Below, one piece after another: positions 16,536 through 61,842 of a DNA stretch of 64,000 nt. The notes under the pieces were generated by a model that was not told the DNA's origin, searched no databases, and worked only from the letters and a program-made list of their open reading frames with translations. Numbering within the stretch: position 1 is the first letter of the stretch; every line of letters starts with the position of its first letter. This stretch comes from Chrysomallon squamiferum (lineage: Eukaryota; Animalia; Mollusca), in NCBI GenBank assembly GCA_012295275.1, contig CM022668.1:10416001-10480000 (forward strand). The letters are read 5' to 3'. A program made the position numbers and the translations under genes.

Positions 16536-19500
16536 GCAATATGTCAGAACAACATTCAAGAAGGGATGTGATATGTGCACTCAATGATAGATCAGATCTA
16601 AAACAAATCATGACAGTGGGGTGCACTAATCAAGGAGGAATAAAGAAGAGAAAGATTAAAAGTAAATGGTGGTTTTATTTCTGTAATCAAGTGAATAATA
16701 AAGAATTTTTAATAATAATAATAATAATAATCACAATAACAAAAATAAGAAGAATTATTATTATTATTATATTATTATTCTTATTGTTGTTGTTGGTGTT
16801 GTTGTTTTTCTTGAAATGATGTTATTGTTGTTAACCATAGTAATAATAATATATATTTGTCTCTTCGTGTGTGTTTTTCTCTCTATTTCATTATGTTAAA
16901 AATAGCCATTTGAATAATATTTATTTCTTTGCAGAAATGGAAACAGAAAAATTCTCCAACATGAAACGTGAGTATATGAATTCTTGCATTCTTTTTATGT
17001 TAATTGTGTCGCATCAATTTGTACATAACAGACATTTAATCAGTGTTCAAAAAGAAACGAAATTAAAATGATAAGAGAAGAACTAAACATTTCTTTATAC
17101 TTATTTAACCACGCCGTGTCAAATCATAACAAAGAATGGAAAAAATCAATCACAGTCCCAGAAAATTGTTATTTAGAGTAATCTGGTTTGGAAAGCTGGC
17201 ATTTCTAGCAGGTGTGGTCCGAGATAGTGTTCTTTCAGTTTTGACAATTTTGACAAAAATGGGCGAAGGTGCCACTATTCAAATGACAAATAAATGACTT
17301 CATTCTACATGCTCACAAGAAATAACTCCATATTTACTTATATATAATAATAATAATAATGTATATATATATAAAACAACATTTCTCGAAACCTTGTGAA
17401 TTCATCTTTATAGAAATATTTATAGATTGACCGATTGTTTGTTGGACTATGGTCATTCAATTCTTAGTGACACGGCCCATTTTTGTCAAAACTGTGAAAA
17501 CTGACAGAACTTTGTATCGATATTAGCCTGTCAGATCATGCTAAAAGTGGATAACGTTTTTCACTGCTATTTACCTAAATATAAATTTTCTGCTAAATCA
17601 AACGGGTGATGTTTCATCAACTACAATTAATATGATTATTACTACTGATTCTACAACTACGACTACAACAATAAATTTTAACATAATTACTCCTCTTATA
17701 TTTTAAAGGCAATGCAACGACTCGAATTCAACACATCAACCCCAACACCTTTGTTCCGATCAGGGCATTCACAATAGCAGAAGAAATACTCGCCAACTTT
17801 GGCATTGTCGTCATCGTAGGAAGTCCGGGATCAGGGAAGACAACTCTGAGTTTAAATCTTATGGAACAAATTGTAAATCGACAACAAACTCAGTCTGTTT
17901 TGGTGACTCATCCTTCTCAGTTCGACGATATCCCGAGACCTAAAGATTTGGTCAACCAGAAGCCGTCAGAAAAGATAATTGTTCTTATTGATGACATTTT
18001 TGGTAAGAGCAATCTTGTGTCCGAGTTTCAGCGAGAATGGGAAATGAAATTTGAAACCGTCTGGTCTTTTGTTGAGTCTGGATTCATGAGGGTGATAATC
18101 ACGTTCAGGTCACATATATTTTCAGACTGTAAGCAAAGTCTTCGTGCTTTTGCCATCTTCAATAAGAAACACTTGATTGACCTGCATGATGAAGATATGC
18201 ATCTGACGTCTGAAGAGAAGAGAAACATTCTGGACAGACATCTAAATTTCCGCGGGGTACACATGAAAGAAGAAGAAAAAGATGAAGCAGTACGGGAAAC
18301 ATTTCAAGAACTTGGTTTCCCACAGTGCTGTGATTTTTTCGTCAGCTCAGAGAACGCTCAGAAGCGTGGAGTGGAATTCTTTAAAAAGCCTGTAGAATTT
18401 ATAGAAAATCAGTTCGCTATACTTAAAAATGATATATTACAGGTAAGTCAATACCAGTACCTCGTACTGCTGATTCTGTTGTTCAAAGAGGGGGTGTTAA
18501 AAGATGATTGTCTGGACCAGCTTGAAGATTCATCAGATATGCTAAACTTGATAAGTAAACTGAAGCACATGTGTAAAATAAATAGTGATGTTTCGCTAGG
18601 TCAGATAAAAGCTTCGGCCAACTCTCTGTGTGGATTGTACTTGACACACAACAAAGAGGCGGGGAGAATACACGTTTATTCACCAATCCATATTTGATAC
18701 ATTATTCTTACAGTTTATATCAGAGCACCAGAAACAAGGACTCCTCATCTGTCCGGCGATGTTCCTTCTTCAGTATATCATTACACCTGCTGTGGCTAGG
18801 AAAGACAACGTCGTTGTAACAGTTGAGAGGAAAAACTTTCCAGTTCTTGCTGAAAGGTTTACAGATTTGTTGTCGTCGTCCAGCGCAAGGCTTATTCTTT
18901 CACACCCATCGTTAAAAGATGAAGAATTCGTTAAATATTTGACAGAGGAATTCTGGAAATCGGTTGTCCCACACAAAGTCTTATCACAGACATTTGAAAT
19001 AAAAAAAGACTCTATCCGCAGTTTTTTTTATGCAGGTGATTTCAATATTCTGTGGTTTAGTTTAGAAAAAGACGGTTGCTATTTCCCAGATATGGAGACA
19101 AAGTTACTCAGTCGTGTTTTTGAGAGCATTTCATTATCGACATCGTCAATGACAAGTGTTGCTGTTGCTGAAAACTGTCGTAGTCTGTCCAGATATTTTG
19201 TGAAAGCTGTCTCCGAGTCAACCGACGCTGTTATTACAAACCAGCGCGGCGAAATTCTCGATGTCTCTTGCTTCACAGGAAACTCTGAAACAACAACATC
19301 TCTGCTAAACTGTGGCACTGTTCCAACTATGACGACACTGACTGCTGCTGCTGTATCGAAGTCAGACGATGTGTCCATATTTAAATTGCTGCTGAAATCC
19401 GAAAGGAATTTTAATATGAAGGTTGACGATTTCGGATCCATGTTGTATCTGGCGTTAGAAAAAGGAAATTGGAAAATTTCACGTTTTCTCATTCGTCGAC

Positions 19501-60400: not shown

Positions 60401-61842
60401 GAGTGGAATTCTTTAAAAAGCCTGTAGTACCTGGTACTGCTCACTGTGTTGTTCAAGAAGGGAACGTTTCTCTAGGGCAGATGAAAGCTTCGGCCAACTC
60501 TCACGTTAAGAGCTGAGCAGACATATGTAGTCAGGATATTCATGGCTCCTCTCTATTGTCCAGAGCTGTCATAAATAACAACATAGAAAAAGCGAAATTA
60601 CTCATCAGAAAAACCCCACAAAATAACATGGCTGATGACAGAGGATGGAAGTCTGTGTCAGTCGCTGCAACGAATGGGACGTATACTCTTCTCAAAGTTG
60701 TAAATGAAGCTGGAGTCAGTGTCAACTACCATGACCTAAAAGGCTAACAGCTTTACATGTAGCTACAATTAACAAACACGCGGATACCTTATCAAGATTA
60801 TTGGAACCAAAGGCGGATCCTTATCTGAGAGACAATAATGAACGCACTTACTTGCATACTGCAACTCTGTATACAAATGTGACTTCAGGTACTACAACAC
60901 AATGTCGTGAATCCAGATTGCGTGGATTCTAACAGTCAAACAGCTCTGTACAAAGCAATCATTTTAGGATTGGAAAAAAATATTGAGCTATTTTTGAACA
61001 AAAGCAGTTCACCTAAATGGAGAGAGAAAACAGGATTGACTCTATAAAACCTGACAGCACTGGTCGGTAAACTGCAGCTGATTGATGTTATTCTCAAGGC
61101 AGGTGAAAATATTAACTGTGAAGGCGAGGACCTGACTCCGCTCATCATTGCCTGCTCAGTTGGGAAACAAGACGTTGTCGATTTTCTGCTGGACAAAGGC
61201 GCTGACCTGAACTGCGGAGACGGTGAAGTGACAGCATTGCATGCTGTGGCATCGTCTCATCACACTGAAATTTTACAAAGTGTTAAACTTCAGGGTCGGG
61301 AAACAGTCCTCTTCATTAGTCAGTTGGCGTCACCCCACAGGAAACGGCTGGATATAGTGATGATTTTGTTAACATGTTAATGAGGTCAGACGGTAAATCT
61401 AGCTCCATGATCAAAACCCTGTTAAGTATATTTCACAAGAACGAGAGACTGACAATCAAATGTTTGACCAAGCAAGTCTAATTTGTAACATAGTCGACTT
61501 CCTCCTTGAAATGGATGCTGCGTTAACCTTCGTAACAAAGCCGGAAATACAGCAGCACATGTGTGTGCAGAATACAACCAGCTAGAACATCTGAAAATGT
61601 TGTTAAAGAAAGGTGTTGATGTAATCATTCTAAACAACGACGACAACTCCGTTCTCCACGAAGCAGTAGAGAGGGCCTAGGTGGATACTGTGGATTTTCT
61701 GTTGGGTGCTGGTGTAGTTGATGTAGCAAACGCTGCAGGAATTACCGCTCGTTATCTGGCCAGCATTAAAATAAACTCTTCTGACGATGAAAACGATCAG
61801 ACAGCTTACACACAAATACTTTCTATATTTGAATCTAAATGA
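57412..61842 (+). pseudogene. STAND-ankyrin pseudogene, copy C; exon remnants 57412-58159, 58722-58840, 59392-59424, ~59970-61842
   Basis: Homologous to copies A and B but with a 4-bp duplication in exon A, a 119-bp exon B, loss of the last acceptor and Walker A, a ~2.1-kb internal deletion at ~60500, and many stops and frameshifts; ends SIFESK*. Confidence 0.92.
57670..57890 (+). repeat. 45-bp (15-codon) coding-frame tandem repeat, acidic DVHLDEADIDDLYNS x ~5
   Basis: ORF 57679-58233 shows the period; preceded by more degenerate Asp-rich units from ~57573; absent from copy B exon A. Confidence 0.88.

Follow-up and report, generated by a model that had tools for sequence, protein, structure and literature searches.

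What are the large ankyrin-bearing ATPases encoded in tandem on one short stretch of a mollusc genome, and how could they act on a signal without carrying an effector domain? The stretch in question (the window) comprises 64,000 nucleotides (nt) of Chrysomallon squamiferum contig CM022668.1 (GenBank assembly GCA_012295275.1, positions 10,416,001 to 10,480,000). It is AT-rich animal DNA with three large paralogous loci on the forward strand, which we call copies A, B and C. These are tandem duplicates of a spliced mollusc gene that joins an nSTAND3-type nucleoside triphosphatase (NTPase) to ankyrin repeats and lacks an effector, in our assessment probably encoding an intracellular immune sensor whose output would run through a separate effector. 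A sensor role for the receptors, considered on its own, seems likely to us. Specifically, the fast-evolving side of the ankyrin repeats would capture a foreign or altered protein, and binding would free the ATPase for nucleotide exchange and subsequent oligomerisation, as is expected from known STAND proteins. The oligomer would then pass the signal to a separate effector protein, possibly via a short N-terminal RHIM-like amyloid motif, which is the weakest step of the proposal.

The Pfam nSTAND3 profile (PF20720) matches copy A with 100.3 bits (E-value 1.1e-28) and copy B with 90.2 bits (E-value 1.4e-25), both above the curated cut-off of 27.2 bits. The NACHT profile reaches only 19.5 bits against a cut-off of 26.7, and this over just 44 residues, while NB-ARC likewise stays below its cut-off. 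Each of the motifs GSPGSGK[T/S], IIVLIDDIFG, VIITFR, GFPQCC and FIHQS is found in both A and B, and Walker A, Walker B, the sensor-1 arginine, the GxP helical domain and the winged helix are present in these two copies, a full series that C does not have. Among 49 aligned rows, at least 90% keep the VIITFR arginine, and the top Atlas cluster for the receptor is nSTAND3, Mollusca (0.98). A structure model of the first 500 residues of the copy B large exon, with a mean predicted local distance difference test (pLDDT) value of 90.5, finds NLRP2, NRC1, MalT, Apaf-1, Avs5, NOD2 and SAMD9 among its Foldseek matches. In VIA-align comparisons the model scores Z 13.2 against NRC2 (root-mean-square deviation 4.5, 288 aligned), Z 12.5 against EfAvs5 (3.4, 183 aligned) and Z 12.5 against MalT, with the AAA+ proteins Cdc6 and DnaA close behind the STAND matches. 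A PDB sequence search with the receptor returned P-loop-level matches only. Judged by these profiles and models, A and B are NLR-like STAND ATPases with ankyrin repeats.

In the putative sensor region, eighteen ankyrin repeats could be anchored by hand in A. The 1181-residue model of B (pLDDT 86.6, predicted template modelling score 0.60) forms a helical-repeat solenoid from about residue 480, with 15 regular ankyrin repeats before the frameshift described below and, on visual reading of the model, about 6 degenerate helical pairs. A count of about 20 repeats per receptor is thus a fair estimate. Ankyrin families are the only repeat families matched by Pfam in the scanned open reading frames of the window, which hold no leucine-rich repeat (LRR), death-fold or TIR match. 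The original prediction had proposed an nSTAND3-type STAND receptor with some 20 ankyrin repeats and no LRR, death or TIR domain, and it is borne out on each of these points by the Pfam scan, by the nSTAND3 match and by the fold matches to NLRs, Apaf-1 and Avs5.

We compared A and B over 1403 codons, using this one paralogue pair and a simple counting method. Synonymous divergence (dS) is 0.122, and the ratio of nonsynonymous to synonymous change (dN/dS) is 0.76 overall, 0.40 (0.18-0.80) in the NTPase core and 0.97 in the ankyrin region as a whole. The last value lies near 1 because two classes of positions are averaged. Repeat positions 2, 3, 5, 13, 14 and 33, which we take to be the binding face randomised in designed ankyrin libraries, have a dN/dS of 1.99 (bootstrap 1.34-2.83), compared with 0.57 elsewhere in the repeats. 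Residues differ at 42 of 106 binding-face codons and at 66 of 482 other ankyrin codons (Fisher p = 8e-9), and none of 5000 random six-position sets reached the binding-face signal. Without the most divergent repeat the ratio at the face is 1.92, and it is 1.64 before and 2.69 after the frame break in B. This pattern points to diversifying selection at the presumed ligand-contacting positions, and is the strongest evidence that the repeats act as a sensor in an arms race.

The same comparison bears on a different possibility, namely that the proteins are non-immune scaffolds or signalling ATPases, with unequal crossing-over in repeat-rich DNA producing the copies and drift changing them. The ratio for the undivided ankyrin region would fit such drift, as would the duplication of an unrelated LYPD6-like gene and 15 kb of leader-like repeats along with the receptors, which makes the duplication not gene-specific; the N-terminal hydrophobic helix of the two closest named relatives also leans this way. 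However, drift would not single out six repeat positions for change and raise their dN/dS above 1, and sister clades carry immune effectors, and we consider this explanation quite improbable. Several points nevertheless weigh against our sensor reading. The selection signal comes from that single pair and that simple method, the face positions are assigned by analogy with the designed libraries, synonymous change is also somewhat higher at the face (0.13 versus 0.084), gene conversion between A and B is possible, and no copy in the window is fully intact.

Copy A has, in the assembly sequence, a +1 frameshift near 18660, within the winged helix and beside a G run. Its spliced frame starts in the 126-nt exon and stops at 380 amino acids, and a frame of 1101 amino acids continues past the shift. 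In copy B, 2 nt are missing near 43889 and 1 nt near 44105, and the ankyrin repeat just before the break no longer has its TPLH core. Despite the frameshift, spliced copy B is open for 1396 amino acids with all catalytic motifs kept, and because the new stop lies in the last exon, this protein is possibly still made. Copy C, 81-90% identical to A, is a pseudogene. It is without Walker A, FIHQS and the winged helix, its Walker B is degenerate, GLPHCC stands in place of GFPQCC, about 2.2 kb have been lost, and 12 frame-breaking indels fall in 1656 aligned bases. As a separate observation, the first coding exon of C (57591-57887) contains an expanded acidic 45-bp repeat that is not in B. The original prediction of three paralogues with a full STAND motif series in three stages of decay thus needs amendment: there are three loci, of which only A and B have the full series, and C is dead and A frameshifted in the assembly, but B cannot simply be called decayed.

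Positions 37700-44720 were compared with contigs from four public runs. Run X1 is the best-matching run and a possible source of the assembly, X4 is a DNA run with another study code than X1, and X8 and X9 are RNA runs of one study. An X4 contig covering 43687-43931 spans the 2-nt deletion of B with 0 differences; this break is real, because it is also present in a DNA run unlikely to be the source of the assembly. It would also be recent, because the sequence 3' of it still has an off-face dN/dS of 0.33. The X1 and X4 contigs around 44105 lack the 1-nt deletion; these contigs may stem from paralogues.

The RNA runs establish that the family is transcribed and spliced, since their junctions skip introns. 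A loose end of an X8 contig at 38128 equals 36219-36246 with 0 mismatches, at an AG/gtgaga donor. Likewise, an X9 loose end at the 33-nt exon equals 12220-12247 with 0 mismatches, followed by AG/gtgaga, although this contig may derive from another paralogue than A. The two leader stretches differ from each other by one base, and both junctions come from the contig loose ends listed, with 73 more outside that listing. Most RNA contigs are 90-99% like B, and those below 99% number 43 of 60 in X8 and 40 of 54 in X9, which points to further expressed paralogues elsewhere.

Given these findings, one must ask whether A, B and C are all non-functional relics, with working members elsewhere and only residual transcription here. 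Every copy in the assembly has a frameshift, that of B is unchanged in X4, C is wrecked, most RNA contigs differ from B, and the repeat just before the B break no longer has its core. Yet the long frame of B with its catalytic motifs, the detection of B's own leader junction in RNA and the low off-face ratio that marks the break as recent all speak against this. We regard wholesale loss of function as a serious possibility that falls somewhat short of probable; it alters the status of the window copies, not that of the family. A further concern is that part of the arrangement is an assembly artefact, with alleles stacked in tandem and indels from read errors. A 200-N gap at 49962-50161 separates B from C and its neighbouring LYPD6-like copy, the two LYPD6-like copies differ at only 15 of 522 nt, the frameshift of A adjoins a G run, and the 1-nt deletion of B is missing from the X1 and X4 contigs. 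However, A and B are 9% apart, differ in repeat number and have no gap between them, C is only 81-90% like A, and a joint matching the C-type deletion is present in run X1. We consider such an artefact unlikely.

Relatives in other molluscs show how far the architecture extends. The closest named proteins come from Gigantopelta aegis (37-53% identity). Two of these, P0001 and P0002 (LOC121387063 and LOC121387848), are 51-53% identical over the first 690 residues and share the nSTAND3 plus ankyrin layout; relatives of this type bear the database name 'uncharacterized' or generic ankyrin labels. Unlike the window copies, P0001 and P0002 begin with a hydrophobic helix followed by an acidic linker of 390-440 amino acids, and the strongly hydrophobic start helix suggests that some family members may be membrane-anchored. 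A family search yielded 937 representatives at E ≤ 0.001, 440 at 1e-10 and 50 at 1e-30. Of the 30 clusters inspected, 26 carry the name of a species or genus, every one a mollusc, and relatives occur in Gigantopelta, Haliotis, Patella, Solemya, scallops, Mactra and Potamilus. The three loci, the further expressed paralogues and these representatives uphold the view of a multi-copy family with turnover. A STAND match is present, the gene is not single-copy, and the family is not unexpressed transposon cargo; the outcomes named beforehand as contrary to the original prediction were therefore not found. Its suggestion of an undescribed kind of system was overstated, in that the receptors form one clade of Pfam nSTAND3, which is abundant in mollusc proteomes. 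Fusions of STAND, HEPN and ankyrin domains, or STAND plus ankyrin immune architectures, have been noted in bivalves (PMC8195603, PMC3710099). A literature search, mostly of open-access papers without supplements, found none on mollusc nSTAND3-ankyrin receptors, which the source-data files of PMC8195603 may list. Ankyrin proteins are reported to be expanded in the symbiont-bearing vent snail that is the source of the closest relatives (PMC7895826), but a link to symbiosis is unsupported because the family is equally rich in abalones.

Many members of the wider family carry effectors. In 30 relatives picked for long N-termini, nSTAND3 was present in all 30 and an effector-type domain in 21: HEPN_DZIP3 in 14, CARD in 2, and Death, DED (below cut-off), SAM, caspase and DUF4559 in 1 each. 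A quick tree of 74 rows (55 of the top 60 matches, 17 hand-chosen effector-type rows, A and B) places P0001 and P0002 as sister to A plus B, with 98% support in the Shimodaira-Hasegawa-like approximate likelihood ratio test. These four sit in a 10-row clade with Gigantopelta proteins (99%), which lies inside a 39-row clade (96%) whose named members are from Gigantopelta or Haliotis. Among the 37 members of the larger clade besides A and B, 25 have fewer than 90 residues before the NTPase, and some have almost none. The other 12 have longer N-termini, and 9 of them have Pfam data, with an effector only in P0016; P0023, P0032 and P0047 fell outside the scan. P0016, from Haliotis, has an N-terminal caspase domain inside an otherwise effector-less clade. 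Lack of an effector is common in this clade and is therefore a clade trait, not decay.

The window copies conform to this trait. The leader of copy B has an in-frame TAA ten codons before the ATG at 38130 and splices directly there, which fixes the start of the protein. The N-terminus of B is then 187 amino acids long, basic and of low complexity, without a hydrophobic helix, and that of A has about 50 amino acids. No Pfam match to a death-fold, BIR or TIR effector occurs in the spliced N-termini of A or B. The receptors are without a folded effector domain or membrane anchor, and their N-terminus is short or disordered. Two candidate additions were rejected. For an anchor like that of P0001 and P0002 there is no such exon, the maximum hydropathy being 0.77 in B compared with 2.8-3.1 in those proteins, and apparent extra N-terminal exons at 31738 and 53739 (P0001 residues 43-78, E 0.09-0.4) are actually exons of the LYPD6-like genes. 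Because the receptors have no effector, their output must go to another protein.

One conceivable route is an amyloid hand-over through an N-terminal RHIM-like motif, a proposal that we make tentatively and with more doubt than confidence. Many effector-less relatives have, by eye, an uncharged stretch of Val, Ile, Asn, Gln and Gly just before the NTPase, much like the fungal NLRs that signal through amyloid motifs. Of 56 N-termini that have no Pfam effector, 5 contain a published RHIM tetrad (shuffled sequences average 1.0, and 10 of 2000 shuffles get to 5), compared with 0 of 21 N-termini that have such an effector. The group of 56 takes in unscanned proteins as well as some probable death-fold proteins that score under the cut-off, and this test was run after VQFG in P0009 was known. 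A strict tetrad from the literature was found in 3 of 54, compared with a shuffle mean of 0.4. The measures devised after seeing the sequences gave 8 of 54 for a relaxed pattern (2.3), 8 of 54 for an arch pattern (3.4) and, for a composition score of at least 7.5, 27 of 54 versus 1 of 21. The tripeptide VGC lies 60 residues before Walker A in A, B and P0005, and P0009 has VQFGC at 59. P0009 itself has two STAND-ankyrin units with VQFG before each, and may represent two gene models fused into one. Among natural RHIM tetrads VQFG is an active one, and a RHIM is also known from a mussel RIPK1 (PMC12119088).

A substantial list of results tells against the amyloid step. Pfam RHIM matched 0 of 35 hand-picked N-terminal stretches, and a profile built from these had no PDB match. 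A de novo motif scored 181.5 (40 starts), not clearly above shuffles at 163-181 (12 starts), in a search that did not score the window exons. Those exons contain no tetrad, only a degenerate motif, a composition score as high as theirs turns up in 3.6% of shuffles for A, which is marginal, and in 30% for B, which is unremarkable, and pairwise alignment with the N-termini of relatives gave no convincing match. One word-limited search found no further protein with the P0009 motif, two of the five tetrad matches (P0088 and P0091) look incidental, and the relatives are not independent of each other. Furthermore, no motif-matched partner effector gene lies within the 64-kb window.

An alternative route dispenses with the motif, leaving the N-terminus as a linker only. 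As sensor-helpers or decoys, the effector-less proteins would co-assemble through STAND-STAND contacts with an nSTAND3 paralogue that bears an effector (caspase, HEPN or CARD), or dampen such a protein. The caspase-fused P0016 within the same clade, the very short N-termini of most clade members and the degenerate state of the motif in A and B are all in keeping with this idea. Contrary to it, the Gigantopelta proteins with Pfam data, a scanned subset, include no effector-bearing member, and the tetrads are enriched only in effector-less N-termini. Taken by itself this arrangement is possible rather than probable, and we hold it to be about as likely as amyloid hand-over. The full conjecture, that mollusc nSTAND3-ankyrin receptors are an expanded and positively selected family whose effector-less members signal by RHIM-like amyloid templating to RIPK1-like or other RHIM partners, must accordingly be regarded as speculative.

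The gene structure of the receptors is collected with their neighbours in the table. Small phase-1 exons precede each of the three large exons, and the prediction that NTPase and sensor are nearly all in one exon of about 4.3 kb agrees with measured lengths of 4242 nt (A) and 4334 nt (B). The two large exons are 90.6% identical and differ in repeat number, B having about 96 extra nt of repeat sequence. A cluster start at 16536 was not confirmed, as the leader exon of A ends well upstream of it, at 12249; that of B ends at 36248. The leader units of A have donor-like ends at 1219, 3123, 5846, 7682, 10391 and 12249, and the last is the one used in RNA. These units belong to a complex tandem array at 1-15500 (with a period of about 4.6 kb at its start), also seen at about 35200-38071 and at 61930-62715, whose units hold leader-exon-like, TATA-like and splice-site-like pieces. 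At least two units serve as first exons, and the array could supply alternative promoters. At 21914-22361 and 44648-44963 lie tandem repeats of about 68 bp whose units reproduce the receptor gene's final codons and stop.

Table. Positions of receptor exons and neighbouring genes in the window
Feature	Positions	Strand	Basis or remark
Copy A, tandem leader-exon-like units 5' of the gene	1189..12249	+	self-BLAST, pattern scan
Copy A, first 33-nt exon	15864..15896	+	likely acceptor of X9 junction (inferred)
Copy A, 126-nt exon with likely start codon and degenerate RHIM-like motif IMTVGCTN	16536..16661	+	
Copy A, second 33-nt exon, phase 1	16935..16967	+	
Copy A, large exon: nSTAND3 NTPase, HD1, winged helix, HD2, ankyrin repeats	17709..21950	+	
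LYPD6-like (Ly6/uPAR) gene, 4 coding exons, intact, 173 amino acids	29887..32876	+	PF16975
Copy B, 3' part of leader exon, spliced to 38130	36217..36248	+	X8 RNA loose end
Copy B, first coding exon: basic low-complexity sequence lacking a hydrophobic helix and Pfam matches	38130..38532	+	
Copy B, 126-nt exon with degenerate motif NMTVGCNN	39022..39147	+	
Copy B, 33-nt exon	39711..39743	+	
Copy B, large exon: complete STAND module with some 15 regular ankyrin repeats kept in frame	40347..44680	+	
Second LYPD6-like copy, intact, 15/522 nt different	52497..54886	+	
Copy C, upstream exons, frame-disrupted	57412-58159, 58722-58840, 59392-59424	+	
Copy C, large-exon remnant, pseudogene	59980..61842	+	

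The LYPD6-like gene was co-duplicated with the receptor genes and is not part of them; the duplication is therefore segmental. PF16975 matches each of three of its exons with E-values of 1.2e-6 to 5.2e-4, below the whole-protein cut-off, and both copies show, by eye, a signal peptide, a three-finger domain and a glycosylphosphatidylinositol-type tail. In the tandem repeats 3' of copy B, and not 3' of copy A, lies an open frame of 587 amino acids (44951-46714, forward strand) that encodes a single C2H2-like finger (zf-met in Pfam, E 0.004; C2H2 clusters in Atlas at 0.91-0.94 with a low recognition score), possibly a captured exon or retrocopy. Inverted copies of another element, 95% identical, are located at 34020-34944 (forward) and 62845-64000 (reverse), and this is likely a mobile element. 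Its open frame of 304 amino acids has DADV and CEDTDVFVLLL motifs and no Pfam match, and may resemble PIN/FEN1-like domains.

Among the closest known systems is bacterial Avs5. This tested anti-phage sensor belongs to the same Pfam family and requires Walker A, Walker B and a conserved arginine (10.1101/2025.07.08.663546), and A and B keep both of the Walker motifs. Avs5 (Sir2-nSTAND3-TPR) and the window receptors share the NTPase family, a tripartite logic, a repeat sensor and the fold (Z 12.5). They differ in that Avs5 has its own Sir2 effector and TPR/Sel1/PPR repeats, whereas the window receptors have ankyrin repeats and no effector, and identity in the structural alignment is about 16%. 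PADLOC (2023 library) returned no Avs model among its matches, the best being PDC-S73 (E 7e-11). Moreover, Avs is a prokaryotic gene with a fused effector and the window receptors are intron-containing animal genes. Fungal NLRs with amyloid motifs (NWD2/HET-S, PP motif) and bacterial BASS likewise combine a STAND module with non-LRR repeats and a short N-terminus that replaces the effector (PMC4262963, PMC9815663), but these use NACHT or NB-ARC, usually with a motif-matched effector gene next door, in place of nSTAND3 without such a neighbour. An amphioxus STAND protein with an N-terminal RHIM has also been noted (PMC4262963). If the amyloid step were true, the receptors would bear on the stated open question of how far signalling amyloids have spread in animals (PMC7889193), and they would represent, across a whole receptor family of an animal phylum, NLR signalling by amyloid in the fungal or bacterial manner.

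Animal NLRs, Apaf-1 and the NACHT-HEPN proteins of bivalves and cnidarians share the STAND fold with the window receptors, and lineage-specific expansion with copy-number variation is described for NLR-type families of bivalves and cnidarians (PMC9646362, PMC8260672). Mollusc NLR surveys are based on NACHT proteins and usually arrive at 5-20 per species (PMC9646362), and an nSTAND3-ankyrin family with hundreds of divergent representatives would escape such counts. Much of the intracellular pattern recognition of snails, abalones and bivalves could fall to this family, and the selected positions of the ankyrin face would offer a direct handle for ligand hunting. The window receptors have no NACHT or NB-ARC at Pfam cut-off, no LRR or WD40 and no death-fold. 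By analogy, they may work as NLR or Avs receptors do, and yet they fall outside the canonical NLR by its NACHT, LRR and death-fold tests.

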